Positions 1 to 64,000 of a stretch of DNA of 64,000 nucleotides are shown here, piece after piece. Location: sequence record OR515477.1; one strand, written 5' to 3'. Within the stretch, counting starts at the first letter, position 1. The number at the start of each line of letters is the position of its first letter. The DNA is from Escherichia phage Es2. The notes under the pieces are model-generated. The model was not told the origin of the DNA, ran no database searches, and was given only the letters and a program-made list of their open reading frames with translations. Made by a program: the position numbers and the translations under genes.

Positions 1-1
1 A

Positions 2-451
2 ATTAATCTGATGATTAATGGTCCGGGTGGTTATGTTGATACTGCTGCACAGTTATCTAACTTAATTGCTAATTGCCGTGGAACAGTTATAGGGCATCTG
101 ATTGGTCCTAGTGCTTCTGCTTACTGCACAATTTTCCTATCCTGTCATGGGTGGGTAGTACATCCACATGCTACGCTAATGGGGCACACGTTCTCTGGCG
201 GATTCTGTGAGAAGGGTCAAGAAATTAAGAAAGCCTATGAATCTTACAACAAGTTCGTAGAAGATATGATGCTAGATGTCTACTATCCGTTCTTCTCAAT
301 AGACGAAATCGACGAGATGGTAAAAGACAACAAAAATATCTATCTAGATAGCAAAGAAATCCATAAGCGTATTGAAATCTTGGCAAAATATCGATCTGAG
401 CAATATAATAAAGCCCAGTTACCTCAATTAGAGGAGCACAGTGAAGAGTAA
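2..451 (+). CDS. ClpP-like serine protease, 5' end truncated by window edge
   Basis: Reading frame open to window start; INGPGG, GPSASA (active-site Ser), HPH and GGF..KGQEI segments align with the ClpP catalytic core; terminator follows. Confidence 0.5.
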   Translation: MNLMINGPGGYVDTAAQLSNLIANCRGTVIGHLIGPSASAYCTIFLSCHGWVVHPHATLMGHTFSGGFCEKGQEIKKAYESYNKFVEDMMLDVYYPFFSIDEIDEMVKDNKNIYLDSKEIHKRIEILAKYRSEQYNKAQLPQLEEHSEE

Positions 452-460
452 GTAGTTTTA

Positions 461-492
461 AGCCAGGGTTTAACGACCCTGGCTTTTCTTTT
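461..492 (+). terminator. rho-independent terminator
   Basis: Hairpin AGCCAGGGT-ttaacg-ACCCTGGCT followed by TTTCTTTT. Confidence 0.6.
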
Positions 493-554
493 ATCTAAAA
501 TTCTTCTTGACAACGACAAAATTTTATGCTCCAGAAGTGATCTTTAAAAACACA

Positions 555-583
555 TTGTAATTTTCCTCCAAAATTAGTATAAT
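555..583 (+). promoter_or_regulatory. sigma70-type early promoter
   Basis: TTGTAA (555-560), 17 bp spacer, TATAAT (578-583), AT-rich upstream. Confidence 0.5.
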
Positions 584-607
584 GGTACTGGTTAGAGGAG
601 GTTACAA

Positions 608-1264
608 TTGGAAAAGTTCTTACAATTATTAACGGTACTGCTCCAAGAAGCGAAAGATCCAGCATCGCTTCTTAAACGTCTGCTAACTATCTTAGTTGCT
701 GTCATTATTTTCTTATTTGTTAGTAATACTAGCGAGGTGATGTCATTCTTAAAGACTTTCTCCACGTCTGCGGTTCTACAGGATGTTCAAACTCAAAGGA
801 TAGATAACTTTCCTAATGTAGCTAGAGAAAAAAGCATGGTACTCTTTTCTCAAACGGGTGCGGATGCTGTTTTTGTCGTCAAGTATAAACCCGATGCCAT
901 TAATGATTATTCTAACATTATTGCATGGGAAAGCAATGCGCAATTAGATAGGGCTGACTTGGCCGATAAAGCGGTAAATAAAACGTCTGAGCTATATAGA
1001 CGTCACTTGGAAGGCTTTAACTACGCATCGGATTTAAGTGTAAAAGTAAATAAATACATGGGGTTAGATATACCTGCGTTTAAGAACGTTACTTTTAATT
1101 ACATATACACTTGTCCATATTTCAATCTAAACAATATCTATGCTGGATATATTGGTATTGCTTGGAAAGATAATCCTGTAGATGCAGCCGATTCTGAGAA
1201 ATTTAACGAGTATTTAACAAAGCTCTGTTCCCCACAACAGAGATCTTTAGGTAGATCAATATGA
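608..1264 (+). CDS. holin, T4 gpt-like (single N-terminal TM, large periplasmic domain)
   Basis: 218 aa; TM segment LLTILVAVIIFLFV; C-terminal CPYFNLNNIYAG matches the T4 holin T motif CPYFNLDNIYAG as recalled; TTG start; directly upstream of endolysin. Confidence 0.55.
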   Translation: MEKFLQLLTVLLQEAKDPASLLKRLLTILVAVIIFLFVSNTSEVMSFLKTFSTSAVLQDVQTQRIDNFPNVAREKSMVLFSQTGADAVFVVKYKPDAINDYSNIIAWESNAQLDRADLADKAVNKTSELYRRHLEGFNYASDLSVKVNKYMGLDIPAFKNVTFNYIYTCPYFNLNNIYAGYIGIAWKDNPVDAADSEKFNEYLTKLCSPQQRSLGRSI

Positions 1265-1674
1265 GTTTTAAATTTGGTAAAAATAGTGAAAAACAATTAG
1301 CTACCGTTAAGCCAGAGCTACAAAAAGTAGCTCGTAGAGCTTTAGAATTATCTCCATATGATTTCACGATCGTACAGGGTATTCGTACAGTAGCACAAAG
1401 TGCCCAGAATATTGCTAATGGTACTTCATTTTTAAAAGATCCTAGTAAAAGCAAGCATATTACTGGGGATGCCCTTGATTTTGCTCCATATATTAATGGC
1501 AAAATTGATTGGAATGATTTAGAAGCATTTTGGGCAGTTAAAAAGGCTTTTGAACAAGCAGGTAAAGAACTAGGCATTAAACTTCGTTTTGGTGCTGATT
1601 GGAATGCTTCGGGAGACTATCACGATGAAATAAAACGTGGTACCTATGATGGCGGTCATGTCGAACTAGTTTAA
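1261..1674 (+). CDS. endolysin, L-alanyl-D-glutamate peptidase (M15-like zinc peptidase)
   Basis: 137 aa, same length as T5 endolysin (from memory); H-x-x-G-D-A-x-D and D-G-G-H-V-E zinc-ligand motifs. Confidence 0.7.
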   Translation: MSFKFGKNSEKQLATVKPELQKVARRALELSPYDFTIVQGIRTVAQSAQNIANGTSFLKDPSKSKHITGDALDFAPYINGKIDWNDLEAFWAVKKAFEQAGKELGIKLRFGADWNASGDYHDEIKRGTYDGGHVELV

Positions 1675-1685
1675 TTGATAACTGA

Positions 1686-1708
1686 GGCGGGAATATTCCC
1701 GCCTTTTT
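1686..1708 (+). terminator. rho-independent terminator
   Basis: Palindrome GGCGGGAAT/ATTCCCGCC followed by TTTTT. Confidence 0.65.
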
Positions 1709-1751
1709 AGGCAAAGGGGGCTTTAATAATTTTTGAAGATAGGAGAAAGCC

Positions 1752-2168
1752 ATGTTTGCAGAACTATTCACTATGATGCTGCTAGGTATCTGGAAAATAA
1801 GTCTAGTAGTATTCGTTTTAATGATAGTTTTTACTATCCTTGCATTAACTACCCGAAATAGCTTACTAATAAAGGTTATTCACGGACTAGAGTATATAAT
1901 TATGGGTTCATTCGGCGTTTGTAAATGCAATTGCCATAGAGATACGAAATATTGTTGGTTATGGATGGAACTAGAGAATCCTATATCCATAGCTTTGGCT
2001 GTTTCATTCGGCATGATTCTTATGGCCCTTACTCTAGCATTAATTCCTTTGATGTTAGCTGGGGGAGTTACAGCGTATTTCACCCTTTTCTCCCCGATAC
2101 TTATGTACTCAATTTACCCAATAACTATGTATCTAGTTAGGAAAAGATTTATACATGCAGTAGATTAA
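1752..2168 (+). CDS. multi-pass membrane protein, unknown function
   Basis: 138 aa with three to four hydrophobic segments; RBS AGGAGA upstream. Confidence 0.4.
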   Translation: MFAELFTMMLLGIWKISLVVFVLMIVFTILALTTRNSLLIKVIHGLEYIIMGSFGVCKCNCHRDTKYCWLWMELENPISIALAVSFGMILMALTLALIPLMLAGGVTAYFTLFSPILMYSIYPITMYLVRKRFIHAVD

Positions 2169-2181
2169 GATAAAAAAGTAG

Positions 2182-2210
2182 TTGACTTTTAGCCCTAGTT
2201 ATTATATAAT
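2182..2210 (+). promoter_or_regulatory. sigma70-type early promoter
   Basis: TTGACT, 17 bp spacer, TATAAT. Confidence 0.6.
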
Positions 2211-2243
2211 ATATACATAAATTAGTTAAGAGAGGTATATATT

Positions 2244-2675
2244 ATGTCTGATCGTTTCTATACTCAAATGGCGGAACATTTTCGTATACCACATTACGAG
2301 CTAAACATTGCACTCCGTGATCATGACTCTCCTGAGTACAAAAAGCTCGAAAAGAAAGCGGAAAAATCTATTGATACAAAGGTAGGTGCATCTATGTCTA
2401 AGGGCAAAAAGTTAACTCGTCTTGATCTTAATAAAATTTTAACTGAACTTTTGGGTACTGATATTGAAGGTGCTAAATTACCGCTTCTTGTACTAGAGAC
2501 TATGATTAAAAAGGTCAAAAATAAAGAGTATAAAAAGGTAGAAGTCCCAGAAGGCAGATTAAAGGCTCCTTATCAGGAAGCATTAACCGAGTGTTTGGGT
2601 GTAAATCTTGATCTGAGCACCGCAACCGTAAAAACTATGAAAAACTTCTTAGAGGCCATTAATAACTATGAGTAA
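2244..2675 (+). CDS. hypothetical early protein
   Basis: 143 aa ORF with RBS AGAGAGG; no recognisable motif. Confidence 0.45.
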   Translation: MSDRFYTQMAEHFRIPHYELNIALRDHDSPEYKKLEKKAEKSIDTKVGASMSKGKKLTRLDLNKILTELLGTDIEGAKLPLLVLETMIKKVKNKEYKKVEVPEGRLKAPYQEALTECLGVNLDLSTATVKTMKNFLEAINNYE

Positions 2676-2958
2676 ATTAGTATATCTATTGAAAGGTTCT
2701 ACTTGCAACCCTTGCAAAATGTTTGAGCCAGTATTTGATAAAGTAGTCAATGAATATAATTTGGAAGTCCATAAAGAGACTGATAATACAGAATTAATGC
2801 AGAAATTTGGCGTACGCCAAGTTCCTGTAGTAGTTCTGGCAGATCGCTTACCTAATGGTCGAGTAGAAGCTAATCATATTTTGATTGGACGTCAGCTTCG
2901 TAAAGAAACTATGCACGAAGCTATTAAAAATTTCCTGGATGATAATCCAGAGGATTAA
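2668..2958 (+). CDS. thioredoxin/glutaredoxin-like protein
   Basis: 96 aa; C-N-P-C redox-type motif near N-terminus after a beta-strand-like LVYLLKGS. Confidence 0.4.
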   Translation: MSKLVYLLKGSTCNPCKMFEPVFDKVVNEYNLEVHKETDNTELMQKFGVRQVPVVVLADRLPNGRVEANHILIGRQLRKETMHEAIKNFLDDNPED

Positions 2959-2965
2959 TAAACCA

Positions 2966-2997
2966 AGCCTGATCTTAGCGGATCAGGCTTTTATTTT
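2966..2997 (+). terminator. rho-independent terminator
   Basis: AGCCTGATC-ttagc-GATCAGGCT followed by TTTATTTT. Confidence 0.65.
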
Positions 2998-2999
2998 AC

Positions 3000-3028
3000 T
3001 TGCTTTCAGCTAAAAATTTTGGTATAAT
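3000..3028 (+). promoter_or_regulatory. sigma70-type early promoter
   Basis: TTGCTT, 17 bp spacer, TATAAT. Confidence 0.55.
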
Positions 3029-3055
3029 ACTTATATAAATTGATTGGAGGATTAA

Positions 3056-3301
3056 ATGTTAGCGGAACAAGCAAAACGTTTAGCTAGGATAAATAGAGCT
3101 GCTCTTCTCAAGAGCAGAAAGAAGCCGTATAGATACGTTAAAAGACGGATTCTAGCTTCTGTAGAGGCTGGGGGTTCTTTTATACAATTTAATCGTGATG
3201 AAATTAGTTATGAAGCTATAAAAGCCCTCTATAAAGATGGTTATACTCTAAAACTATCAAATAATTATGGTACAACTATTTTAAATGTTATTTGGGAATA
3301 A
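3056..3301 (+). CDS. hypothetical early protein
   Basis: 81 aa ORF with RBS GGAGGA. Confidence 0.4.
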   Translation: MLAEQAKRLARINRAALLKSRKKPYRYVKRRILASVEAGGSFIQFNRDEISYEAIKALYKDGYTLKLSNNYGTTILNVIWE

Positions 3302-4167
3302 TTATGAAAAAAGAATTTAATGTACATAAAACACTAGTAGTACCTGATGATGTTAACTTATTCTTTGTTGGTGATATTCATGGATGCAACGATTTACTAG
3401 AAGATGCACTACAATTAGCTGGATATAACGGCAAGAAAGATTGCGTTGTATGCGTGGGAGATTTAATTGATCGAGGCACGCAGAACCTACAAGTTTTAGC
3501 TAAATTCCTGTATAATCCACGCTTTATCAGTGTCCGTGGTAATCATGACCAATTTATGATTGTGGGAGATTGGGCTAACTGGATGTATAACGGTGGTATG
3601 TGGGCTATGAATGAACTAGATGCAGATACCATTAAAAATATTGCCGAAGACATGGCTGAAAAAATGCCAGTATTCCTAACTGTTAAACATCGCGGCAAGA
3701 AGTATGGTGTTGTTCATGGTGGTGTACCTTTTACATACAAAGAATGTGGTAATGAAGTAGAAACCCCAGTATGGGATAATCTTATTGCACAAGTAGAAGC
3801 AGCTAAGGAAGACCCACACGACCATCCTGGATACCATGTTGAGCCATACTTATGGGATCGAGATGTAATCCAAGAAATAGGTTTTCACTTAGCTAAAAAT
3901 GGTGAAGAACACTCATATTTCCAGCGTTATGCAGGGTTTAAAGAGAAATACATGGTAGAAGTACCTCCAGTTAATGGGGTAGACTTTGTATTTCATGGAC
4001 ATACCGGAGTACCTTACCCGATTTTATACCAGAACCGTGTTTATCTTGATACTGGCGGTGTTTTCAACGGGCAGTTGACGGTTGCGCAAGTTAATGATGA
4101 AACTGGGAAAATCACAACATTTACCACGCTTCGAGAAGATAGCTGTGGTGTACAGAGGATTCTTTAA
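3292..4167 (+). CDS. serine/threonine protein phosphatase (calcineurin-like metallophosphatase)
   Basis: 291 aa; GDIHG, GDLIDRG and GNHD metallophosphatase motifs. Confidence 0.7.
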   Translation: MGIIMKKEFNVHKTLVVPDDVNLFFVGDIHGCNDLLEDALQLAGYNGKKDCVVCVGDLIDRGTQNLQVLAKFLYNPRFISVRGNHDQFMIVGDWANWMYNGGMWAMNELDADTIKNIAEDMAEKMPVFLTVKHRGKKYGVVHGGVPFTYKECGNEVETPVWDNLIAQVEAAKEDPHDHPGYHVEPYLWDRDVIQEIGFHLAKNGEEHSYFQRYAGFKEKYMVEVPPVNGVDFVFHGHTGVPYPILYQNRVYLDTGGVFNGQLTVAQVNDETGKITTFTTLREDSCGVQRIL

Positions 4168-4454
4168 TGAATGATAGAATGAAAGAAGTACAAGAAGAAT
4201 TACGAGCAATGCGTATTGATGCCCTTCGTTGGAGAGCATTAGTTAATGCTTTCGTCAAAGGAGATACCGGAGTAATATATTCTGGAATAGCAGTCAATTT
4301 TTGTTTTAATTCTCCTGCTGAAATAGAGATAGAAACAAGGCTTACTACCTACCTTAATGAGGTAGACCTTAAGGAAGGAGAGACTCCCGGGGAGTTTAAA
4401 ACTAGAGTATTAACTACCTGGGTTGATAATTTAATACAAAAAAGGAGTAAGTGA
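4167..4454 (+). CDS. hypothetical early protein
   Basis: 95 aa ORF, start overlaps upstream stop (ATGA). Confidence 0.4.
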   Translation: MNDRMKEVQEELRAMRIDALRWRALVNAFVKGDTGVIYSGIAVNFCFNSPAEIEIETRLTTYLNEVDLKEGETPGEFKTRVLTTWVDNLIQKRSK

Positions 4455-5044
4455 TGAAGGTTAAATTCTGGTCAGACTTGCACTTAGACCACCCTGGAGC
4501 ACTACGTTTCCGTCCGTGGTTTAAGAACATGAAAGAGCACGATGAGTATATTCTAGATACTTTATCCAAGCATATTGGTAAACGAACAAAACTTATTTTG
4601 CTAGGAGATATTGCAGTAGGTCGTGAAGGTCTGGCCAAATTAAAGTCGGTTATCCACAATGTCCCTAATCAACTCATTATGGGTAATCATGATGCGGAGC
4701 GTCAAGGACTGAGTATTAGGGACTTAGCGGAAGTTTATGACGATATTCAAGCTCTAGGCAAACAGACTGGAGGTGGCAAAAAGTTTTGGCTATCTCACTG
4801 CCCTTTGCACCCTAATGAACTTCGTGGCAAACTAAATATTCACGGACATGTACATACTACTTCTTTACGTGATCCACGTTATATTAATGTCTCATTTGAA
4901 ATGAGTAGAACTCCAATTCCACTAGAGGATATTGTGTCTGGTAAGTTTACTAGTTACGATAGAGTGGTTAATTGTACTACCGGCGAGGTATTACAAATAG
5001 GAGAAGACGTAGCTGCTGTATTGCGTGGCGATATAAATGTCTAA
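4451..5044 (+). CDS. metallophosphoesterase-like protein
   Basis: 197 aa; LLGDIAVG, GNHD and GHVH motifs. Confidence 0.5.
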   Translation: MMKVKFWSDLHLDHPGALRFRPWFKNMKEHDEYILDTLSKHIGKRTKLILLGDIAVGREGLAKLKSVIHNVPNQLIMGNHDAERQGLSIRDLAEVYDDIQALGKQTGGGKKFWLSHCPLHPNELRGKLNIHGHVHTTSLRDPRYINVSFEMSRTPIPLEDIVSGKFTSYDRVVNCTTGEVLQIGEDVAAVLRGDINV

Positions 5045-5152
5045 GTATATAGCTAGGGCTATTATTAAACGAATTATACAAGTGATAGCAATACTTATAG
5101 TTATTTGTATTGCCATTGGCACAGGACTAGGCATTTTAATTAAAAGTTTTAT

Positions 5153-5181
5153 TTGCTAAAATGCCTAAATTTCTGTATAAT
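5153..5181 (+). promoter_or_regulatory. sigma70-type early promoter
   Basis: TTGCTA, 17 bp spacer, TATAAT. Confidence 0.55.
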
Positions 5182-5211
5182 TACTTTATAAATTGATGAG
5201 AAGGAATAAAA

Positions 5212-5643
5212 ATGAACAAAGTCGATAAAGCCTTAGTTTTCGCAGCAGCAGATAAGTTTGAACAAGTCAAGGCAACTTTCCGAACCTTGTTCCAGTCTTA
5301 CGTTCAAGATAAGTCTAATCCTATTTCTGAACGCTTAATGGTTTGGGAATGTCATGCTTGCAATGCCCTGCTAATTGCGGATTATCGTAGTGATATAGAT
5401 AAAGATCTCTGTGAAATCCTCATCCCTGAGGAAGCAGAACGTTATCAGCTAATCTCTTTTCAAGATTTGGCAGAGCACATAATCCCTGATGATCTTTGGG
5501 ATAAATACTATGGTGATCCTGAAGATGAGGGGATGACTCCAGAAGCATGTATTGAGTTAATCTGTAAGGATCATCCTGAAATTGCAGAAAAATTTGAAAA
5601 AGTTTTTGCTTCTGAGTTCTCTGGTGTTGTTAACGATTGGTAA
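5212..5643 (+). CDS. hypothetical early protein
   Basis: 143 aa ORF with RBS GAGAAGGAA. Confidence 0.45.
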   Translation: MNKVDKALVFAAADKFEQVKATFRTLFQSYVQDKSNPISERLMVWECHACNALLIADYRSDIDKDLCEILIPEEAERYQLISFQDLAEHIIPDDLWDKYYGDPEDEGMTPEACIELICKDHPEIAEKFEKVFASEFSGVVNDW

Positions 5644-5660
5644 GTAATTAAAAAATTCAG

Positions 5661-5689
5661 TTGCTTTAAGCCTTAAAATTCTGTATAAT
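5661..5689 (+). promoter_or_regulatory. sigma70-type early promoter
   Basis: TTGCTT, 17 bp spacer, TATAAT. Confidence 0.55.
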
Positions 5690-5721
5690 AAGTTCATAAA
5701 TTAATGAGAGAGGAAATTCTA

Positions 5722-5973
5722 ATGGAAAACATGACTAAAAATGAAATGGCTAACGTTCTGGCAATTCTCCTCGACATGCAGGGTTTTGAGGGTCAGCTCA
5801 TGAAGATGTCTATTCCGGCAATGAAAAAGATGTATGATTCTCTGAATAAGAATGCTATGGCATTCAACCTTGCAAAACAGGAAGCACGTTTTGCTAAAGA
5901 GCATCAAGCGACTGCCGAACGTCGTGCAGCATCTTTTGAGCGTGAAGTTAAGCAACTGAAAGGTAAGAAATAA
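5722..5973 (+). CDS. hypothetical early protein
   Basis: Start moved to the ATG at 5722, which has RBS GAGAGGA 7 nt upstream; ORF track begins at 5704. Confidence 0.4.
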   Translation: MENMTKNEMANVLAILLDMQGFEGQLMKMSIPAMKKMYDSLNKNAMAFNLAKQEARFAKEHQATAERRAASFEREVKQLKGKK

Positions 5974-5995
5974 GGACTAAGGGAGTATATAATTA

Positions 5996-6277
5996 ATGTT
6001 GATTGAAATTCTTATTGGGTTACTAGTTCTTACTACCCTAGTAGCGATTGGCGGAGTTATTGGGATTGTGAATGCACGAAAAAGCATGGAAAATATGCTT
6101 ATTACTAATGATGGACTACACCACCGTTTGCTAGAGCAAGAGCAGGATATTGAATTAGCACAAAGACGCTCGGATATTCTTAAGGAAAAATTAAATAATA
6201 TAGAAGCAATAGTTGGGAATAATAAATTACCTGCTAAAGTAATGCGTACACAGATAATCACGGAGATTAAAAAATGA
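5996..6277 (+). CDS. small membrane-anchored coiled-coil protein
   Basis: 93 aa; N-terminal TM then charged helical region. Confidence 0.4.
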   Translation: MLIEILIGLLVLTTLVAIGGVIGIVNARKSMENMLITNDGLHHRLLEQEQDIELAQRRSDILKEKLNNIEAIVGNNKLPAKVMRTQIITEIKK

Positions 6278-6519
6278 TGATGTTTATTCTAGCGTTTTAT
6301 CTAATTGTGGTTGGTGTACTGGTTACTAAGTATCACACATGGACACCAAAGAATGTAGGTAAGGTAGCACTGTTTGTTATCCCAGTTCCACTTATTATCT
6401 TTTCTATGTTACTGGTGATGTTAATTGGTAAAGTAACAAAAACTGATATTAAACGTATTGCTGATGAATTGCAACAGTCTTGTGATATGGTAGAGGATAT
6501 TATTAAAGATGAAGCTTAA
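6274..6519 (+). CDS. small membrane protein
   Basis: 81 aa with two hydrophobic segments; ATGA overlap with upstream gene. Confidence 0.4.
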   Translation: MMMFILAFYLIVVGVLVTKYHTWTPKNVGKVALFVIPVPLIIFSMLLVMLIGKVTKTDIKRIADELQQSCDMVEDIIKDEA

Positions 6520-6835
6520 TTTTAATGAATTAAATACCTTACATGAGATATTACAGTTTGTGAATAATAATATTAGTATTCCAGATGATACTCTAGAAGT
6601 TCTCATGTTAATCGAGAAAAAGGTAGGAATTGAAATTGAGGATTCTTGGAAACCACTTTCTGTATTAACACCACTTAATATAAAAGTGATAGTTAAAAAT
6701 ATTGATACTGGTGAAGAGTGTGAAATGATTCGTAAAGAACTAGCTGATAGTTATTCACCAAAGTCTGTAGTAATGTACCATGATGATACTCCTAAGGTTC
6801 TACAGACAGCTAATTACGTATGGCGTCTACCATGA
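6509..6835 (+). CDS. hypothetical early protein
   Basis: 108 aa ORF. Confidence 0.4.
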   Translation: MKLNFNELNTLHEILQFVNNNISIPDDTLEVLMLIEKKVGIEIEDSWKPLSVLTPLNIKVIVKNIDTGEECEMIRKELADSYSPKSVVMYHDDTPKVLQTANYVWRLP

Positions 6836-6978
6836 TTGATCTAGTACCAGTTACTGCGGGGCTAATAGCATTGCTAGTATTAGCAGTATTCATTATTGTG
6901 GAGCAGGCCAAAGTAATAAGGAGACTTAAAAACAATGATAAAACGTCTTGTTTATCAGGCACCAAAGATTGTAACTGA
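6832..6978 (+). CDS. small membrane peptide (48 aa), not in ORF track
   Basis: ATGA overlap with upstream stop; hydrophobic core AGLIALLVLAVFIIV; overlaps next ORF in another frame. Confidence 0.25.
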   Translation: MIDLVPVTAGLIALLVLAVFIIVEQAKVIRRLKNNDKTSCLSGTKDCN

Positions 6979-7135
6979 GTATTTTGTATTACTGCCTCAG
7001 ATTGTATTTCTAACAGCATTATTTAATATACTTTTTCGACATCTAGGAATAACGGAAAATATCTTCTACACTTCTGAACTACTTCCCTTTATGTACGAAG
7101 GCATCATCGTGGCAATTAACGGAGTTCGTAAATGA
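6935..7135 (+). CDS. small membrane protein
   Basis: 66 aa; strong RBS AAGGAGA 8 nt upstream. Confidence 0.4.
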   Translation: MIKRLVYQAPKIVTEYFVLLPQIVFLTALFNILFRHLGITENIFYTSELLPFMYEGIIVAINGVRK

Positions 7136-7593
7136 CAGCACTACAACAACTACAGAATTACTGGTTTGATAACCAATTTAACGATCTCTTTATCCAGTTG
7201 TTTGTCGAAACGAACGGACGCTTCAACTACCGATTCTTTAATAAGTTTCACGAAACAAAATTCTCCCATACAGAAATTAACGCAGCAATTCAGGACTTAA
7301 CAGGTTCTAAGGTAATTCAGTATCGTGAAGTAGACTTTACACCAGATTGTTTTGGATTTGAATTGTTTAAGAAAGCGTATAAATTTGGCAAGTTTGAGGA
7401 TGCTCGTCAATGGGTTCATGATTTCTGGTATAATACCGATATTGTTCCTAGTCGTGTGCTGATTCTTAACTGGATTGCTAAACAACACCCACCTAAAGCT
7501 CAATCGTCCTTCTTACCAACTGACACAGGAAACCTTTACCATGACAGAAAAGAAAAATCCATTGCTGGAGCAGATGAAGGAATGGGAGAGTAA
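7132..7593 (+). CDS. hypothetical early protein
   Basis: 153 aa ORF. Confidence 0.4.
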   Translation: MTALQQLQNYWFDNQFNDLFIQLFVETNGRFNYRFFNKFHETKFSHTEINAAIQDLTGSKVIQYREVDFTPDCFGFELFKKAYKFGKFEDARQWVHDFWYNTDIVPSRVLILNWIAKQHPPKAQSSFLPTDTGNLYHDRKEKSIAGADEGMGE

Positions 7594-7912
7594 TATTGAA
7601 ACTGGTCTAGTAGACGGAGAAGATATTGTTAACTCTATGCTAGAAGTAACAGTGGATAATATTAACCCTATTTTGGCCGGGGAAACCTCAGATCTTATAG
7701 GACTTTCTAGTACATTCGATTCTTTGGCTAAATTAGCCTTAGATAACGAAGAGATAACCAAAGAAGATCTCGCTACAGCTATGAATATGGCTATTAACGC
7801 CTATATTGGTAAACGTACTGATGAACTCGATAAACAAATCAAAAAGCGTGATACAACGTTAGATCTTATGGAAATGGCCACTATGTTAAGAAGTGGTAAA
7901 CAACTTCATTAA
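7541..7912 (+). CDS. hypothetical early protein (acidic)
   Basis: Start set at an internal ATG (MTEKKNPLL) to limit overlap; the true start is uncertain. Confidence 0.35.
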   Translation: MTEKKNPLLEQMKEWESNIETGLVDGEDIVNSMLEVTVDNINPILAGETSDLIGLSSTFDSLAKLALDNEEITKEDLATAMNMAINAYIGKRTDELDKQIKKRDTTLDLMEMATMLRSGKQLH

Positions 7913-7919
7913 TTTTAGG

Positions 7920-7953
7920 GGCCAGGACTTAATTGTTCTGGCCTTTTGTGTTT
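7920..7953 (+). terminator. rho-independent terminator
   Basis: GGCCAGGAC-ttaatt-GTTCTGGCC followed by TTTTGTGTTT. Confidence 0.55.
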
Positions 7954-7966
7954 CAAGGAACTCCAA

Positions 7967-8170
7967 ATGCAAGTATACGTCCTTACTAGAGACATAAATG
8001 AGTATAATCAGGATGGTGAGTATTTTGTAAAAGTGTTCGCTGAAAAGCCAAGTAAACAACAACTATTAGACGCTGGAGTACCAGAAGACCAGGCTAAGTA
8101 TATACTACAAGATAAAGAATTTACTGGAGATGCTTACGAATGCTTCCATCTTAGTTGTGAGAATATCTAA
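7967..8170 (+). CDS. hypothetical early protein
   Basis: ORF track start at 7946 lies inside the terminator hairpin, so the ATG at 7967 is preferred. Confidence 0.3.
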   Translation: MQVYVLTRDINEYNQDGEYFVKVFAEKPSKQQLLDAGVPEDQAKYILQDKEFTGDAYECFHLSCENI

Positions 8171-8171
8171 T

Positions 8172-8618: not shown

Positions 8619-8901
8619 CTACATTGTATGGTCAAATCCATTAGCAGCACTTAGTAATAAATTATTTAAAACAGAATGGGGTAAAAACGAAATAGACTTA
8701 GGTAGTCGCCCAATACCAAATAAGCACCCATTAGTACCCGAGCTATATAGGGTAGTTATAAATGGCACAGAGTATTTGGTCGATAAATTTGACAGAAAAC
8801 GTTTACTAGAGGGTATCTACGATAATTCTATATCAATAAATGAATTAGTGGAACATGCCCAAATATATGATAAAAGCTGGATGTTAATATGGAAATCATA
8901 G
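8611..8901 (+). CDS. hypothetical early protein
   Basis: 96 aa ORF. Confidence 0.4.
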   Translation: MSSYIVWSNPLAALSNKLFKTEWGKNEIDLGSRPIPNKHPLVPELYRVVINGTEYLVDKFDRKRLLEGIYDNSISINELVEHAQIYDKSWMLIWKS

Positions 8902-13719: not shown

Positions 13720-13721
13720 TT

Positions 13722-56099: not shown

Positions 56100-56376
56100 A
56101 TTTTATTTCCTCTTTAAAGATTAATTTCGATTTGTTAATTGCGATTAGTGGGTTAGTGTCGATTACTAAACGTGGTATCCATACTGGAACATATTGTATG
56201 TCCAAACTAGGATCGTTTGTAAACTTGTATTCGGCATAATTTCGTAGACTTAAAATTCCTAGATATTCTGCCAGTTGTCTATTAGACAATTTATTTGGAT
56301 TATCAACTATTGTTGATTCATTCAAAATGAATGAGGAACCGACCAATAATTGGTGAGCATCAGGCTCTGTAAGCAT
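56092..56376 (-). CDS. hypothetical protein (94 aa)
   Basis: RBS GAGGA upstream. Confidence 0.4.
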   Translation of the reverse strand: MLTEPDAHQLLVGSSFILNESTIVDNPNKLSNRQLAEYLGILSLRNYAEYKFTNDPSLDIQYVPVWIPRLVIDTNPLIAINKSKLIFKEEIKYG

Positions 56377-56483
56377 TCTTTTGAATAACTTAATAATTAG
56401 GTCGGAATTTCCTCTAGCTAGTAAGTATAGCTTTTCATAATCGAAGAATTTAATTTTTGTTTTCTCCTCGAATTTATGTATAT

Positions 56484-56513
56484 ATTATACTAGATTTCGA
56501 GAGAATTTAGCAA
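56484..56513 (-). promoter_or_regulatory. sigma70-type early promoter (minus strand)
   Basis: On minus strand TTGCTA, 18 bp spacer, TATAAT; a second copy of the -10 region lies near 56575. Confidence 0.45.
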
Positions 56514-56596
56514 CTAAAATTTTTATTTTTCTGCTTCGGACTTTCTTATCAATCCGAAACTTTCTCTCTCAAATTTATGTATATATTATACATCAT

Positions 56597-57949
56597 TTAT
56601 GAGCTGTTGCCAAATGCAATTTTAGCTAATTGAACTGCTTTCTCCGGAGTCATGGTAATAGTTTTCCACCCGTTGTTACGATATACTGCCATACGTCCAG
56701 AAGCCTGTCTTAGTCCAGTGCCCCCTTTCATAATTAGATCTACAACAATAGGGTCGAGTTTACCTTCGACAATACGTTGAACACGGCCTGCAAGCTGTTC
56801 AATGAGAGATTCATTATTAATGAGGCTTCCCATTATTAAACAAGACAACTCATTAAGAGAAATACCTTCAGAGAAGATGCTCTGAGCTGCTGCAAGTACA
56901 CAAGGTCCACCTTTTGCTATATCTTCCTGGATTTTTAATCGGTCATCTAAGTGGGTTGCCCCTATAATTTCATATGTTGTAACACCACGCTGTGCAAGAG
57001 CTTCTAATACTGTTTGGATTAACTCTGTTCTATCGCTTACAATGAGTACTTTATGCCCCATATTCACGTATAAATGTGCTAGATTTATAATAGTCTCTCG
57101 GTATTCAGGATGATTATATACATCGTTAGCACGTAATGCCCATGGTACGTTTTGGTTCCCTGATAACTCAACAGGTACGGAATACCTATGGATTGTAGGT
57201 GCAACAGTATTATTAACCGGTGGGCTAAAGATCTTATATCCAAAGAAATCTTTGAACATAACTTGTAGACCATCTTTTCTTTTTAATGTACCGGATAGTC
57301 CAATCTTATAGCGAGCACAGGATATTTCTAGGAAGTTAGTGAAAGTTGTAGCCACACAATGGTGAACTTCATCAACTATAACAGTACCGAATACTTTAGA
57401 AAGATTATTCGCATGTTTATTCACTGTTTGAATATTACTAACCACAATTGGTGGATCAATATTGTATTTCCCAGAACCTATGATACCTGGTTCAAACCCA
57501 AACCATTTACGAACCTCTGCCGCCCACATTTCACGAATAGATGTGTTGGTACAAATTACCAAAGTTTTTTGGCCAAATTTATACGCAAGTGCAAGGGCTA
57601 AGATAGTTTTACCAAATCCTGGCTTACCATTAATAATACAGGTATCATCGCACTCTTCATATATTGGGAGCTGGTCTTCTTCACGTAGCTTGAACTTAGG
57701 TTTTGGTATATCTACCGGAGCTAATGTACGTTTATCTACTAATTCGTATTTTACTCCTTTAGCATCTAGTAAGTCCAGACGCGTAATAGGAATCCACTTA
57801 ATCTCTTTGGCAACAACACCACTATTCTTATACATAATAGGGTATTTACTAGTCATTGTCTCAATGTGATAAGTGGTTTGTTTACTACAATAATCCCAAA
57901 GTTCATCATCGGGCTTGAAATAGGCTTTATTAGATATAACAACCTTCAT
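56597..57949 (-). CDS. SF2 DNA helicase, D10-like
   Basis: 450 aa; Walker A GKPGFGKT and DEVH box. Confidence 0.65.
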   Translation of the reverse strand: MKVVISNKAYFKPDDELWDYCSKQTTYHIETMTSKYPIMYKNSGVVAKEIKWIPITRLDLLDAKGVKYELVDKRTLAPVDIPKPKFKLREEDQLPIYEECDDTCIINGKPGFGKTILALALAYKFGQKTLVICTNTSIREMWAAEVRKWFGFEPGIIGSGKYNIDPPIVVSNIQTVNKHANNLSKVFGTVIVDEVHHCVATTFTNFLEISCARYKIGLSGTLKRKDGLQVMFKDFFGYKIFSPPVNNTVAPTIHRYSVPVELSGNQNVPWALRANDVYNHPEYRETIINLAHLYVNMGHKVLIVSDRTELIQTVLEALAQRGVTTYEIIGATHLDDRLKIQEDIAKGGPCVLAAAQSIFSEGISLNELSCLIMGSLINNESLIEQLAGRVQRIVEGKLDPIVVDLIMKGGTGLRQASGRMAVYRNNGWKTITMTPEKAVQLAKIAFGNSS

Positions 57950-58443
57950 AATTTTATTCTAAGTCTAGGAATTTCAGGCTCCTCTTGATGGACTTGATAA
58001 ATAACAGGGCTATTATTTACCAGAATATAGCTTATATAAGCTGGAACATAAGATAATACAAATGGATATGGAACTTTAGCCACATAGCATTGGTATTTTC
58101 CATTATAGATTCTAGCTGAATGCAAAACTTTAGAGGTGACAACATCATAGAACGTAGTTTTCTTCCAGTTAATAAGATTTCCATCAGAATCTATAAATTG
58201 GCTACGCTTTGACCCAACTAATTGAGACAACATTGATATTCTACCTCTAATAGGATAGAGCTTATATGGTAATTCTTTCCGTTTCTCAAATAGAATAAGC
58301 CTACGTTGAGAAAAAGTGCCAGGCAACTTCCTGTTATCTAGCACATATTTATTATATCTTGTTGTAATTACGGAATAATCACCTTCTTGCTCAATTGATA
58401 CGAACGCCCGTAAAGCATATACGGGCAATTTGAAATCAAGCAC
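57946..58443 (-). CDS. hypothetical protein (165 aa)
   Basis: ORF between polymerase and helicase genes. Confidence 0.4.
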   Translation of the reverse strand: MLDFKLPVYALRAFVSIEQEGDYSVITTRYNKYVLDNRKLPGTFSQRRLILFEKRKELPYKLYPIRGRISMLSQLVGSKRSQFIDSDGNLINWKKTTFYDVVTSKVLHSARIYNGKYQCYVAKVPYPFVLSYVPAYISYILVNNSPVIYQVHQEEPEIPRLRIKL

Positions 58444-61003
58444 CGAGAATCCTTCTCACGTTATCCAGATCTTTACATACAGCAATAAACTTATCATCCT
58501 TGTACTTGCTATGATCTGGATGCTCTTTATCCATTGCAGCTAGTTTCTTATACTCGAACTCTACATCAAGTAATACACCCTTGACATAACGAGTGTATTC
58601 ATCATCATCAATACAAGCGATTGATGGATGCTGCTTCTTCATCTTACCACAAGAGTAGTCACGAGAACCTCCAGCTTCAGAATCAGAATCAATACCAATC
58701 GGACAACCAGGAATACTGATACCACGGTCTTTCTGAATATTACGAATCAGGATTTCATTGTATTGGTCGATCAAGTCTTCACGAACAATAGCAACTACGG
58801 AGTCATGAACCAGCATAACAATCTTCATCTCTTGTTCTAGGCCAAGAGAAATGATCTCATTGTCTGCATCTACAGCACCTAAAAGGAGGCTATCAGAAGA
58901 AGCAGACTGAATGATTGCGTTAAATCCAGAACGGATTTCTTCACCCTGAACACCACGGTCTTCGGAGTGGATATTATGCAGACGACGTTTACGACCAAAG
59001 TGACTGTAGATAAATCCATGATTCTTGATCTGATCGTGGCACTTATCAATCCAACGTTTAAGCTGTGGGAACTGACCGAAGTACGTTTCAATGTACTCTT
59101 TAGCATCTGCAACAGTACACTCCACAAATGGTTCACCTGTCTTAGCAGCTTGTTCCAGAAGAGCTTCATTAACAGAATGAGCTACTTTAGCCGGGCCAGA
59201 ACCGTACAAAATACCGAAGGTGATTGCCTTAGCGGCCTGACGTAGTGCTGGGAACAACTTCTTAACATCACGAGGTTCGCATTGGAGCTTAAATACCATG
59301 TGTGCGATGTTAGAGTGGAAGTCAGGGTATTTATCAGGCTCATTTCTCATGTTGATAAATACTTGTTGCATATTTCTATCCCCAGATAGAACAGCAGCAT
59401 AATAAACTTCCGCAGTTGTTAAGTCCCATGCGATTACACGATACCCGGGAGGAGCTACTACACAACCCTTGATAATAGATTCATCACGAGGTAACTGTTG
59501 AAGGTTCAGTTTACCAGAAGAACTCAGACGACCAGAAGTAGTCATGTGTTCGTGGAAGCCAGTACGAATGCAACCATCAGCATCAATGCTCAGAAGAATC
59601 TTCTCAACGTAAGTGGAGATCAGCTTAGTCAGCTTACGAATCTCTAGCAGAGTTTTAGCGATTGGATGCTGCGTAGACAGTTCGTTCAGAGCTTCTGCAT
59701 CTGTAGAGTCCGCTCCAGTATCTGTCAATTTACCTGTTGGAGTTAAGCCAACATAATCAAACAGAAGAACACGTAGTTGCTTAACAGAGTTTGGGTTAAA
59801 CGCCTCGTTCTGGTCTTTTTCTAGCTGAACGACTTCTGGATAAGTATACAGTTTCTCACGAGCCTTATTCAGGTTATGGGTTAACTGGTACTGTGCTTCT
59901 TTCAAGCGATCAATAGAAATTGGTACACCGCGATCTTCAACACGTTGCAGGAACACGCAACCAGGCATCAAAACATCGTAGTATAGACTGCAAAGTTTTT
60001 CATTCTTCTCAATTTTTGGTAAGAAGAAGTTGTGCAAACGTATGGTGGCATCGGTATCTTTTGCAGCGTAAGGCCACATAATATCAAACGGAATTAAATC
60101 ATAGGTGAAATCTTCTTTCTTGATTTTATGTGCTTTGCAGTAATCCTCCTTGAACTTATCTAGTTCAAAGTCATAGTCGCCCATATCGGTATACTTCATT
60201 GCTAGAGATTTCAAGCCATGAGTACCACGACGCTCATCTAGAACATAATGCTGCAACATGGTATCATGGAGCCTGCGTTCTTTATGTGCTTTATCAAAGG
60301 TAAGTCCCAGATGGTACTTATAAAAGTGCATATCAAACTTCAAGTTGTGAAAAACAATAGTGTGGTTTTCACTATCCAGAATTTTCTGGAGATAATATAC
60401 TGCAACCTCTGTGAGACAATCAGAATCGATATACACACCCTGATACTCTTGGTGAGACATAGAAACACCAAGCAGATAACCATCTCGACAGTATAGTGCT
60501 GAGGTTTCGGAGTCGAATGCGACAGGTCCGATAACCATATTATACACCATCTTGATATATTCTTCCGCCTCATCAGGGTCAGTAATAGGGCGGTAATCAC
60601 CAGCTTTTGCAATCTTCTCGCGACCATTGATAATATCGTGGATATTTTCTACTGTTGCATCGAAAACTGGTTTCATTTCAGGTTTAAAGTGTAGCTGGGC
60701 TGGGCTGATACTCGCAATCCAGTTAGCATATCCATTATATTCTACACGTTTACCAGTATAGTCACCAATGCCTTTCTTACCTGCGAAATACAGGAAAGGT
60801 TCAGCACCTACTAGTATAACAAAATCGTAATCATTCGGATCAAATGGGTTTTCTGGTGTTCCAATAGTAATGTGCTTTTTAAGCAAACGACCAGATAACT
60901 TCTCGTTACACATATGGAATACATCAACTTCCTCACCGTATAGCTGGAAGTGTTTATCGTAACGAGTGTTATTTAGAGCTTTATCAACTACTGCGATTTT
61001 CAA
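58436..61003 (-). CDS. DNA polymerase, family A, with 3'-5' exonuclease domain
   Basis: 855 aa, same size as T5 DNA polymerase (from memory); exonuclease and Pol A palm segments recognisable. Confidence 0.8.
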   Translation of the reverse strand: MKIAVVDKALNNTRYDKHFQLYGEEVDVFHMCNEKLSGRLLKKHITIGTPENPFDPNDYDFVILVGAEPFLYFAGKKGIGDYTGKRVEYNGYANWIASISPAQLHFKPEMKPVFDATVENIHDIINGREKIAKAGDYRPITDPDEAEEYIKMVYNMVIGPVAFDSETSALYCRDGYLLGVSMSHQEYQGVYIDSDCLTEVAVYYLQKILDSENHTIVFHNLKFDMHFYKYHLGLTFDKAHKERRLHDTMLQHYVLDERRGTHGLKSLAMKYTDMGDYDFELDKFKEDYCKAHKIKKEDFTYDLIPFDIMWPYAAKDTDATIRLHNFFLPKIEKNEKLCSLYYDVLMPGCVFLQRVEDRGVPISIDRLKEAQYQLTHNLNKAREKLYTYPEVVQLEKDQNEAFNPNSVKQLRVLLFDYVGLTPTGKLTDTGADSTDAEALNELSTQHPIAKTLLEIRKLTKLISTYVEKILLSIDADGCIRTGFHEHMTTSGRLSSSGKLNLQQLPRDESIIKGCVVAPPGYRVIAWDLTTAEVYYAAVLSGDRNMQQVFINMRNEPDKYPDFHSNIAHMVFKLQCEPRDVKKLFPALRQAAKAITFGILYGSGPAKVAHSVNEALLEQAAKTGEPFVECTVADAKEYIETYFGQFPQLKRWIDKCHDQIKNHGFIYSHFGRKRRLHNIHSEDRGVQGEEIRSGFNAIIQSASSDSLLLGAVDADNEIISLGLEQEMKIVMLVHDSVVAIVREDLIDQYNEILIRNIQKDRGISIPGCPIGIDSDSEAGGSRDYSCGKMKKQHPSIACIDDDEYTRYVKGVLLDVEFEYKKLAAMDKEHPDHSKYKDDKFIAVCKDLDNVRRILGA

Positions 61004-61096
61004 ATTTAATCTCCTCTTGGTAAGTAAGTATAACTTCAGTGTTTCTTCTCTAACTTACCAATATATTATATCAAAGTATTAGGATAATAGCAAATA

Positions 61097-61426
61097 CTAT
61101 TTATATGTGTGTAGTAGTTTAAGCATTTCGTTGCGCTGCTTTTCTACTGCCTTAAGTTCTTCATCTATGCGCAAGAAAGCTCCGAGTACTTTCATAGATT
61201 GCTCAGTATTTTCTACAACAGCCCAATCATACGTTAGATATACCTCTTGACCAGTATCTTTTACTATAAAGTAAATATATGATGCTGGTAATTTAGAGTC
61301 TCCAAATAGATGGAAATCCTTTCGTTTATTAAGGGATTCTAGTACCGTAAACCGTTCTAATTCCACTCTTTCATGTGTTGTACTGTCGTATACTGGAACA
61401 TCCTCATAAATATATACATATTCCAT
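61097..61426 (-). CDS. hypothetical protein (109 aa)
   Basis: RBS GAGGAG upstream; own promoter. Confidence 0.45.
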   Translation of the reverse strand: MEYVYIYEDVPVYDSTTHERVELERFTVLESLNKRKDFHLFGDSKLPASYIYFIVKDTGQEVYLTYDWAVVENTEQSMKVLGAFLRIDEELKAVEKQRNEMLKLLHTYK

Positions 61427-61453
61427 AGTGACTCCTCAGTTATTTATGAAAAT

Positions 61454-61483
61454 ATTATACCAAATCTTTGAGCGATTCAGCAA
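61454..61483 (-). promoter_or_regulatory. sigma70-type early promoter (minus strand)
   Basis: On minus strand TTGCTG, 18 bp spacer, TATAAT, then RBS and ATG at 61426. Confidence 0.5.
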
Positions 61484-62345
61484 CTAAAATTTCAATACGT
61501 TTTGCTAACATATCAATTTCATCTTTGTTTAAATCCCCAGGATCTTTACCTTCAGGCAGAAGAAAGTTAGCAACTACAGGTGTTAAACGCGTTTTTGTAC
61601 GAATTAACTTGGCCAATGCTTGTGCAGCCTTATTACCAGAAGCATCATTATCTAGTAAGATAACAACAACTTTAACACCAGCAATAATATAAGGACTGAA
61701 CTTATCTGCAATGTTATCCGAGGTAAACTGATGTGTACCAAAGCAGCAAGAAGCATAGTCTATACCATTATCCTCTAGGTTCAGCATATCAAAGATACCT
61801 TCAACTAGAATAAGAACTGGAGTATTATATCGTACAGGGAAAATCGGTGGTGAAACTTGTTTTGGTTTTACTAAGTATTTAGGAGGGGCAGAACTGTTTA
61901 TAGAACGACCCAAAAATAGGATATTGCGTCCAACAGCATCTGTGATTGGGAATACAATTCTGCCTTCCCAGTCTGCTTGGTGTTGGAAAGCAAAATATTT
62001 CTTCAAGGTCTTAGAACTTATACCTCGGAAATCACCTTCGAAAAGGTAAGCAGATTCAGGAATTGCAAGATTCGTAGATCCATTCCTAATCTCTGAAATC
62101 TTTTTACGTACCTGCGATAGCCTTGGGGACTGTCGGTACTGAGTCTCATTAAAATAATGGTAAATGCTCGGTATACCTTTACCGAAGCCACAACTCAAGC
62201 AGTGCATAATACCTGTTTCAGGATCAATACGCAAACTTGGGTGTTTATCGTCATGATCTGGATTGAGACAACAGATGAGGATGTCCCCACCTGTGTCTTT
62301 ATATTCAATGCCTTTCAGATCAAGTAGTTCTGTTATTCTACTCAT
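61455..62345 (-). CDS. DNA primase (DnaG-like, zinc finger plus TOPRIM)
   Basis: 296 aa; C-x-x-H...C-x-x-C zinc finger CCLNPDHDDKHPS...CLSCG and TOPRIM-like LVEGIFD. Confidence 0.6.
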   Translation of the reverse strand: MSRITELLDLKGIEYKDTGGDILICCLNPDHDDKHPSLRIDPETGIMHCLSCGFGKGIPSIYHYFNETQYRQSPRLSQVRKKISEIRNGSTNLAIPESAYLFEGDFRGISSKTLKKYFAFQHQADWEGRIVFPITDAVGRNILFLGRSINSSAPPKYLVKPKQVSPPIFPVRYNTPVLILVEGIFDMLNLEDNGIDYASCCFGTHQFTSDNIADKFSPYIIAGVKVVVILLDNDASGNKAAQALAKLIRTKTRLTPVVANFLLPEGKDPGDLNKDEIDMLAKRIEILVAESLKDLV

Positions 62346-63811
62346 ATATCGCTGGCCTGTTCACCTGTTGAATTTTCAGTTTTGTCTTTCTTAGCACGTT
62401 TAGGTTGAGCCGGCTTATCCTTCTCAATAGGGATAACGAACTCAGCTTCCATTTGAGATATATCTTCCATTGCTAGGTTGGTAGTGTTATCCATCCGCAA
62501 GGTTTCCCAGTTCATTTTAGGCATAAACTTCACGCTATCAGAAGAACGAGTCTTAACGAAGTCAAACATAATAGCACCTTGACCATTATCAGCTTTTGCA
62601 GCATTAAGATTAGCCGCCATGTCTGCAGAATCAAGAATACCCTTTGACATACGTGTTCTACCATCTTGATCGATCTGGTAAGGAGCTACACCAGCCACGT
62701 TATGTTTCTGGCAGATAGATTTGAAAGACGAGCTAACAACCATCTGTTCTTTCCAGTCATACATATCAATGGTTTTAGAGTCTGGAAGTCGGGTTTGGTT
62801 AATATAGTCCAGTAAAGCTACTGTAACTTTATCACCATATCTAGCAACTAATTTATTTAATTCTACGTCAACTGTTGTAATGGACAGTTCAGGGTCATAA
62901 ACGATAATCATAGGAGTATGTAGTTCATATCCTTCTATTAGCTTACTCTCCATATCGTAGAAATCACTCATCTTAGCCATTGTGTACTGTTTAACGAAGT
63001 TGTCGAAAAGCTCTTCACCACCATTAAACATTCTAGCTCTAGTTCTGGCTAATCTCAACAGAGCTGCACCTTCTAGAGTATTATTACGCATTGCTAATGC
63101 TGATACACCAGCTAACATGGCTAGATTACGTCTAAATACTTCATGTTCTTTCATCTCAATTGAGAAGTATGGAGCAATATCCCCATTCAAATATTGCTGA
63201 ACCTGTATGTTTGAACAGATAATGGATTTACCAGTACCACGCCAACCACCAAGCAGTAACGTTTCTGTGCGAGCTAAACCGATTTGAGCGTCGAACTCAT
63301 TACAAATACCAAGAGCGATTAAGTTCAGTTTGGTATCTTCTTCTCTCTGGAAAATACGCATGTTATCTGCGTTGAATACTTTTCCAGTATTCGTTACTTT
63401 CTCTTCTAATTTTAAGTGAAGGGAGGCAACTCGGTTGAGAATTTCTCCCTGATCCAGCATTGTTAAATCTTGAAGCACGTCTGTTTCTAGAAGCTTCAGG
63501 AATAAATCCTGTGTATATTCGGCTTCTAGGACTTCAAGTGCCTGTTCCATGCTCACTTCTGGAATTTGAGTGTTAGCTAAGACGACTAGAGCTTGAGAAA
63601 GGCGGGCGTTCCTATTAGCTTCAAGCATAAGTGCGTCAATGGACGGCATTGTGTTATATTTTTTATAATAATTCTGGACGGCTTGGTAAATTGAGGAGAA
63701 AGCGTCATTAAAATGATCTTTATGCAGTTTTGAGAATGTTTCCAATGCTATTTGCTTCTGTTCGGAAGCTAGAAGCATCTTCAACACTACAGCTTGCACG
63801 TTAAACAAGGT
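62342..63811 (-). CDS. DnaB-like replicative helicase
   Basis: P-loop GGWRGTGKS; start uncertain (ATG at 63811 or 63865, the latter overlaps an upstream hairpin). Confidence 0.5.
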   Translation of the reverse strand, partial: TLFNVQAVVLKMLLASEQKQIALETFSKLHKDHFNDAFSSIYQAVQNYYKKYNTMPSIDALMLEANRNARLSQALVVLANTQIPEVSMEQALEVLEAEYTQDLFLKLLETDVLQDLTMLDQGEILNRVASLHLKLEEKVTNTGKVFNADNMRIFQREEDTKLNLIALGICNEFDAQIGLARTETLLLGGWRGTGKSIICSNIQVQQYLNGDIAPYFSIEMKEHEVFRRNLAMLAGVSALAMRNNTLEGAALLRLARTRARMFNGGEELFDNFVKQYTMAKMSDFYDMESKLIEGYELHTPMIIVYDPELSITTVDVELNKLVARYGDKVTVALLDYINQTRLPDSKTIDMYDWKEQMVVSSSFKSICQKHNVAGVAPYQIDQDGRTRMSKGILDSADMAANLNAAKADNGQGAIMFDFVKTRSSDSVKFMPKMNWETLRMDNTTNLAMEDISQMEAEFVIPIEKDKPAQPKRAKKDKTENSTGEQASDI

Positions 63812-63850
63812 CATTCTCCTTTGCACGCTTTCGTGCCTTCTAAATGCAAA

Positions 63851-63880
63851 AAGGGGAAGGAGCATAGCCCCCTCCCCTTA
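63851..63880 (-). terminator. putative terminator (minus strand)
   Basis: On minus strand AAGGGGA...TCCCCTT hairpin followed by TTTTGCATTT. Confidence 0.35.
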
Positions 63881-63896
63881 GGTTTAATTTACCAGA

Positions 63897-64000
63897 TTAT
63901 TCAGCAGCCGCAGCTTTTGCATCCAGTTTAGCACGCTTAGCGGCACCATCATAGTCCTTAGCAACCAGACCACGACGAGACAGCATAGATTTAACACCGC
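63897..64000 (-). CDS. 3' end of a gene continuing beyond window
   Basis: Open frame on minus strand ending ...KRAKLDAKAAAAE-stop; only 34 codons visible. Confidence 0.3.
   Translation of the reverse strand, partial: GVKSMLSRRGLVAKDYDGAAKRAKLDAKAAAAE

Follow-up and report, generated by a model that had tools for sequence, protein, structure and literature searches.

The closest described relatives of the DNA considered here are the phages T5 and BF23, whose linear genomes end in long direct terminal repeats. In the T5 record (NC_005859), the repeats are annotated at 1-10219 and 111532-121750; the left repeat contains dmp, A1, A2, an HNH gene, T5.011-017 and the injection stop signal (9140-10149), and oad/llp lie at 108427-110662, immediately left of the right repeat. 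In BF23 (OR083247), PhageTerm identified repeats of 9,743 bp from read data (PMC10644984). Here, we analysed a stretch of 64,000 nucleotides from Escherichia phage Es2 (OR515477.1), hereafter the window, in which homologues of early, pre-early, late and replication genes of T5 follow each other without interruption around a single homologue of the T5 terminal repeat. We conclude that the window is, very probably, part of an ordinary T5-family genome in which the two end repeats have been merged into one internal copy.

In a megablast comparison of window positions 8-26 kb with 50,697 phage records, 560 records were matched, nearly all of which are from T5-like phages of Salmonella, Escherichia and Klebsiella, and the top match had a coverage of 86-88% and an identity of 89-91%. 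Other parts of the window were 93-94% identical to Tequintavirus records. Moreover, over the 64 kb of genome compared, queries of 18-25 kb matched many Tequintavirus records with an identity of 87-94% over 80-92% of the query. Judged by these similarities, the window is from a T5-like phage (Demerecviridae, Markadamsvirinae, Tequintavirus-type).

We compared the window with four segments of the T5 genome by BLAST. The window follows T5 along a single unbroken colinear path in reverse orientation (E = 0 blocks, 76-97% nucleotide identity), which leaves no room for a chance similarity. Along this path, positions 11608-21780 of the window correspond to the whole T5 repeat, from 10219 down to 1 or, equivalently, from 121750 down to 111532, and positions 21781-64000 correspond to T5 from 111531 down to 67976. 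The single repeat homologue is flanked on the left by the DNA that comes after the left repeat in T5, and on the right by the DNA that comes before the right repeat in T5. A linear virion genome cannot show such flanks, which are those expected after fusion of the two repeat copies and circularisation or rotation of the sequence. We also searched for a partial second copy of the repeat in the window; this possibility was rejected because self-BLAST found nothing longer than 133 nt.

An earlier note, written from the sequence letters, had already read the window as a collapsed terminal repeat or a circularised assembly, and this reading is supported by the presence of one repeat homologue with the unique DNA of both T5 repeats on its flanks. 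The gene order on which the note relied was recovered at the places it had named, in PHROG searches and in the comparison with T5 proteins, and its description of T5, with the pre-early genes within a repeat of ~10 kb and llp/oad at the right end of the unique region, agrees with the T5 annotation. Alignment to T5-family genomes, which it had proposed as a check, gave a window colinear with a repeat-fused T5, and its guess of a doubled block at roughly 11-22 kb fits the homology-derived interval 11608-21780. By contrast, its statement that the boundaries of the repeat cannot be set from a single copy was too pessimistic, since homology to relatives with two copies places them, as follows.

Segments of 800 nt over the junctions from the left repeat to unique DNA and from unique DNA to the right repeat were taken from T5, vB_EcoD-Elw (Elw) and vB_EcoS_MM-1 (MM-1). 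Both junction types of all three phages align straight across positions 11608 and 21780 of the window. The three records end with ...TGTGGCTC, and the left-repeat context then continues with TAAAAACTCAGG; the window is identical there and, therefore, the boundary is placed between 11607 and 11608. At the other end, the three records start with (T)GTCCA..., which in the right-repeat context is preceded by ...CATGGAGGTGT and, therefore, the boundary is placed between 21780 and 21781, where T5 itself is 1 nt off. The two Epseptimavirus genomes for which repeats are annotated agree with these boundaries: SIY1lw matches both of them exactly, and Stitch deviates by 5 nt at 11607/11608 but not at the other end. 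The PhageTerm ends of BF23 also map to matching positions, exactly at 11607/11608 and within 1-2 nt at the left end. Altogether, the alignments of T5, Elw, MM-1, Stitch, SIY1lw, BF23 and chee24 show that the terminus sequences are conserved in seven two-copy relatives, in six of which the annotated boundary is within 1-5 nt. Based on this homology, the physical ends of the isolate would lie at the homologous positions 11607/11608 and 21780/21781, with a margin of 1-5 nt on either side, and the repeat would span 11608-21780 (10,173 bp), in reverse orientation compared to the T5 convention.

The repeat contains the following genes, which have homologues in T5:
13039-15277, minus strand: pre-early block, divergently transcribed, homologous to T5.011-T5.015
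13510-13719, minus strand: AP-endonuclease homologue within this block, where DUF7566 matched
15842-16360, plus strand: HNH homing endonuclease (PHROG HNH, 7e-31) in the slot of T5 hegG, with 56% amino acid identity
17657-18064, plus strand: A2, DNA-binding and needed for second-step transfer (98.5% amino acid identity to T5 A2; phrog_1725)
18448-20112, plus strand: A1, DNA transfer and host shutoff (94.6% amino acid identity over all 556 aa of T5 A1; phrog_1745, E 5e-245)
20937-21671, plus strand: dmp, deoxynucleoside-5'-monophosphatase (95.5% amino acid identity to T5 Dmp)

The matches of dmp, A1 and A2 cover the full length of the T5 proteins. In the block at 13039-15277, homologues of T5.011, T5.014 and T5.015 were detected by tblastn with 90-100% amino acid identity. 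Genes were named by PHROG matches and by comparing them directly to the proteins of T5, since the local copy of Pfam is without the new T5-specific families and gave no match for A1, A2, dmp or the receptor-binding protein (RBP).

In total, the repeat of the window has the same gene order as that of T5 (dmp, T5.002, A1, T5.005, A2, T5.007, the HNH gene, T5.011-015 and iss, the injection-stop region), and the unique flanks on both sides, the terminus sequences, the sequence of the putative nick site and the terminase are also alike. T5 differs from the window in having two copies of the repeat instead of one and a repeat of 10,219 bp instead of the inferred 10,173 bp; moreover, the window is in reverse orientation, neither its RBP nor its Llp belongs to the T5 (FhuA) type, and it has an additional ORF (open reading frame) of 67 aa at the left end. 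BF23 shares with the window an identical Llp and the RBP family, whereas its repeat of 9,743 bp has no HNH gene and BF23 is without the 67-aa ORF. In the window, as in T5, the HNH gene separates the repeat regions; according to Davison (10.1101/866236), the insert at the HNH slot is missing from most T5-like phages.

The iss of T5-like phages has a characteristic anatomy: in 25 such phages, Davison described a 131-bp pair of the type IRD'-spacer-IRC' / IRC-spacer-IRD, paired DnaA boxes and a Repeat Region 3 that overruns into unique DNA (10.1101/866236). The following elements were found in the window:
~10964-12700: repeat-dense, mostly non-coding stretch
11474-12074, plus strand: array of eight GTCGGATTYGCACA repeats that straddles the boundary, with two outside and six inside the repeat
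12074-12099, plus strand: nick-site hairpin AAAA/GCGCAGGGCAATTGCCCTGCGC, which aligns with the T5 'major DNA single-chain interruption' at 9748/9749
12113-12663: seven copies of the palindromic AATGAGAATSATTCTCATT repeat of iss, with one more copy at 21746-21764
12311-12441: 131-bp inverted-repeat arm of the IRD'-spacer-IRC' type, with DnaA-box pairs at 12334/12346 and 12395/12407, each with a 3-bp gap
15544-15674: partner 131-bp arm of the IRC-spacer-IRD type, with a DnaA-box pair at 15570/15582 and a single box at 15643

Self-BLAST pairs 12311-12441 with 15674-15544. The pattern used found seven DnaA boxes (three full pairs and a single box), where eight boxes are expected; T5 itself also has seven. 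Thus, the two 131-bp inverted repeats, the 3-bp-spaced DnaA pairs, the arrays and the palindromes are all present, and the repeat-dense non-coding DNA is the known injection-stop region of T5. The GTCGGATTYGCACA motif has 10 matches in the window compared to 0.05 expected. By position and copy number, the array most likely corresponds to the DRD repeats of Davison; nine DRD repeats were described in T5, where Repeat Region 3 overruns the left repeat by 270 bp (10.1101/866236). The palindrome AATGAGAATSATTCTCATT has eight matches, all within the repeat, compared to 0.07 expected, and the stretch with the seven copies comprises the repeat families D1, D3, D6 and D7. Finally, the Pu-pGCGC nick consensus is kept at 12077/12078, suggesting that a single-strand interruption would be located between 12077 and 12078. 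A scan for promoter and terminator consensus sequences at 10.5-23.5 kb gave results not clearly above the shuffled expectation.

We surveyed the 60 best-matching records for the way in which they represent the repeat. The two-copy genomes among them have lengths of 117.8-121.8 kb; T5, Elw and MM-1 were read at both ends, while the others were assigned two copies from their length, from matches reaching the end of the record and from matches at more than one place. Most of the 60 records (49) are 102-113.5 kb long, i.e. about one repeat short, and were matched internally or at one end only. The single-copy T5-like records have arbitrary start points, many of them at TerL, and share 87-92% identity with the window across the repeat; the best coverage of the window is 94% at 91-92% identity. 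S131, phiLLS, mar004NP2, STP-SP2 and ECOP18 are single-copy records that are collapsed and rotated in the same way as the window. Thus, the arrangement of the window is the usual representation of the T5 family in databases. A similar effect is known from the short terminal repeats of T7 and T3, where an assembler also merges identical ends and where fixed ends are also made from concatemers; however, the repeats of T7 have a length of 160-230 bp and are non-coding, whereas the T5 repeat of ~10 kb carries genes and the injection-stop signal.

An arrangement like that of the window would also be expected if the gene order were native, i.e. if the DNA were packaged by a headful mechanism into a truly circularly permuted genome that has neither fixed ends nor a long exact repeat. 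Headful packaging was predicted for phiLLS based on a tree of terminases together with restriction patterns (PMC5519627), and phiLLS, which has a single-copy record of 107 kb, is a close relative, with an RBP region 93.5% identical to that of the window. However, TerL of the window is 99.8% identical to TerL of T5, for which fixed ends and 10-kb repeats are established, and BF23 reads gave fixed direct terminal repeats (PMC10644984). Moreover, the window has kept the exact sequences of the conserved, fixed termini, and an anatomy of iss and first-step transfer makes sense only with a fixed left end. We, therefore, consider headful packaging extremely improbable. A native internal gene order was also rejected from the side of the records, because those with an internal repeat fall short of the two-copy records by about the length of one repeat. 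Alternatively, the single copy might reflect real intracellular DNA, in the form of a replicative circle or a concatemer junction, rather than the collapse of virion DNA during assembly. Replicating T5 circles without one repeat, which were seen by electron microscopy (cited in 10.1101/866236), would carry exactly such a junction; however, most of the related records are isolate genomes about one repeat short, as expected from routine collapse. The two origins are inseparable by sequence and equal in biological meaning, and we regard an intracellular origin as very unlikely.

The exact position of the ends has to be weighed separately, because the repeat could be real while its boundaries in the isolate differ from those derived by homology, e.g. 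by being shorter as in chee24 (MF431730). Two observations speak against the boundaries given above: chee24 annotates its repeat boundaries 93 and ~207 nt further in, and phages vary in the final ~90 nt of the repeat at the left end (conservation 0.5-0.9). In addition, Stitch and T5 are 5 nt and 1 nt off, respectively. On the other hand, six of the seven annotated two-copy genomes, including Epseptimavirus genomes and the PhageTerm-based BF23, agree within 5 nt. The chee24 sequence is itself homologous through both consensus junctions despite its shorter annotated repeats, suggesting that its annotation is conservative and that the discrepancy is probably a difference in annotation. We conclude that shifted boundaries are unlikely, and that a T5-family genome with merged end repeats and ends close to 11608 and 21780 accounts best for the window.

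At both boundaries, we identified conserved sequence blocks:
11558-11640: conserved block over the right physical end (T5 convention), reading ...CGGGCCGAAGGCCCGTGATTGCCTGAGTTTTTA up to the boundary and GAGCCACAAGAATTTTCACTTG beyond it, with a column conservation of 0.93-1.0 in eight phages
11575-11589: hairpin CGGGCCGAAGGCCCG inside the right-end block, ~20 nt outside the repeat
21781-21830: conserved block just outside the left physical end, ACACCTCCATGTGTAATCTTATGAAATTTGGCAAAAAG, with a conservation of 0.83-1.0 in nine phages

We tentatively suggest that the blocks at 11558-11640 and 21781-21830 might serve the T5-family terminase as signals for recognition or cleavage, and that AATGAGAATSATTCTCATT might be a protein-binding element linking the two ends, although we consider this proposal rather doubtful. 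This palindrome has one copy at a distance of 17 nt from the left end and seven near the other, at 12114-12657. Against a role in linking the ends, the copy near the left end is missing in T5 and MM-1. Elw, chee24, Stitch, SIY1lw and L6jm have this copy, and BF23 is without it. In a limited literature search, no functional mapping of T5-family terminase signals turned up.

The remainder of the window is occupied by unique DNA that, in the virion, would lie next to the left repeat on one side and next to the right repeat on the other:
1-11607, plus strand: early left-arm genes, located in the unique DNA after the left terminal repeat in the virion and colinear with T5 from 21604 down to 10220
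608-1264, in the plus-strand early arm: holin (PHROG E 4e-78; 95% amino acid identity to T5 C1)
1261-1674, in the plus-strand early arm: endolysin (PHROG E 2e-54; 99% amino acid identity to T5 lys)
21829-22911, minus strand: small genes, chiefly for membrane proteins, homologous to T5.159-162, at the right end of the unique region
23025-23291, minus strand: llp, receptor-blocking lipoprotein (phrog_1119, with lipobox)
23377-25134, plus strand: RBP, receptor-binding tail protein of the pb5/Hrs family (phrog_4815, E 3e-274)
25145-25627, plus strand: TerS (98.1% amino acid identity to T5 TerS)
25627-26943, plus strand: TerL (99.8% amino acid identity to T5 TerL)
26971-50421, plus strand: late structural module with portal, decoration protein, protease, major capsid protein, connector, tail tube, distal tail/baseplate and fibres
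36301-39981, plus strand: tape measure protein, within the late structural module
50689-63865, minus strand: replication/recombination module with dut, D15 flap endonuclease, D14, D13/D12 (SbcCD-like), D11, D10 helicase, primase and D6 helicase
58436-61003, minus strand: DNA polymerase, within the replication module

TerS and TerL (25145-26943) matched Terminase_6N and Terminase_6C of Pfam. The late structural module is colinear with T5 from 105784 down to 81684, except for the fibre region at 46363-50419, and the replication module is 94-97% identical at the nucleotide level to T5 from 81684 down to 67976. The strand of the long ORFs changes from plus to minus at ~50.4 kb. The GC content of the 64 kb is 35-44%, and no tRNA or known RNA family was detected in the window using ARAGORN and Rfam at the gathering threshold.

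The adsorption module at 23025-25134 is of the BF23 type and not of the T5 type. Llp is identical to the receptor-blocking protein of BF23 in 88 of 88 residues; the RBP has 67.6% amino acid identity to the RBP of BF23 and 32% to T5 pb5, in the C-terminal half only. These similarities suggest that the receptor may be BtuB, as described for BF23 (PMC10644984), rather than FhuA. The lateral tail-fibre region at 46037-50421 has no nucleotide similarity to the single ltf gene of T5. Its two genes code for fibre proteins of 784 and 581 aa (PHROG tail fibre matches), a layout that is also found in DT57C (LtfA, LtfB) according to the BF23 paper (PMC10644984), and an internal repeat of ~120 nt is located at 46342-46462 and 46637-46756.

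The 67-aa ORF mentioned above (21829-22032, minus strand; phrog_20937) is on an insertion of ~200 nt and lies no more than ~50 nt away from the inferred left terminus. The insertion is present in S130/S131 (98% nucleotide identity), L6jm, Stitch and SIY1lw; it is not present in T5, Elw, MM-1, BF23 and chee24. Conversely, the T5 endonuclease genes T5.154, T5.141 and hegJ are without counterpart in the window, and the colinear map skips them cleanly at 27039-27057, 36280-36286 and 62342-62345, respectively. Among the early genes, two segments have no nucleotide similarity to T5: 4167-5044 encodes a 95-aa ORF (phrog_14979) and a divergent phosphoesterase, and in 9906-11221, ORFs of 115 and 237 aa (phrog_13456 and phrog_8993) replace T5.018. 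These differences of the early segments from T5 are ordinary mosaicism.

The record would, thus, hold one direct terminal repeat of ~10.2 kb instead of two, in a circularised or rotated form that places this copy internally. By analogy with T5 and BF23, the virion DNA would be linear and start at the complement of position 21780 (GTCCAGTGG...), and continue leftwards via dmp, A1, A2 and iss to 11608, followed by the early, replication and late genes and, finally, a second copy of 21780 to 11608. During infection, the left repeat would be injected first and transfer would halt at the iss repeats, as transferred by homology from T5 and BF23; A1 and A2 would then let the remaining genome enter in the second-step transfer. 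Replication is expected to proceed via circles lacking one repeat, such as those seen by electron microscopy, or via concatemers with one repeat per genome unit, from which the terminase would recreate the duplicated ends at fixed sites. Because TerL and TerS are near-identical to those of T5, the same chemistry of end formation is the default expectation. Short-read assemblers would merge both identical copies, giving a circular single-copy arrangement that equals the natural concatemer junction.

In total, the collapsed repeat is an artefact of representation that is already known and that also mirrors a natural concatemer junction. It brings no new biology, and the pair of boundary blocks is the one loose end that it offers to specialists. 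Its value is practical: the record is probably ~10.2 kb shorter than the virion genome, with the true ends at about 11608 and 21780. Moreover, and unlike the reading given to a related single-copy genome in the phiLLS paper, the record should not be read as circularly permuted, and the gene order across 11-22 kb should be taken as a junction of the concatemer type and not as the order of genes in the virion.

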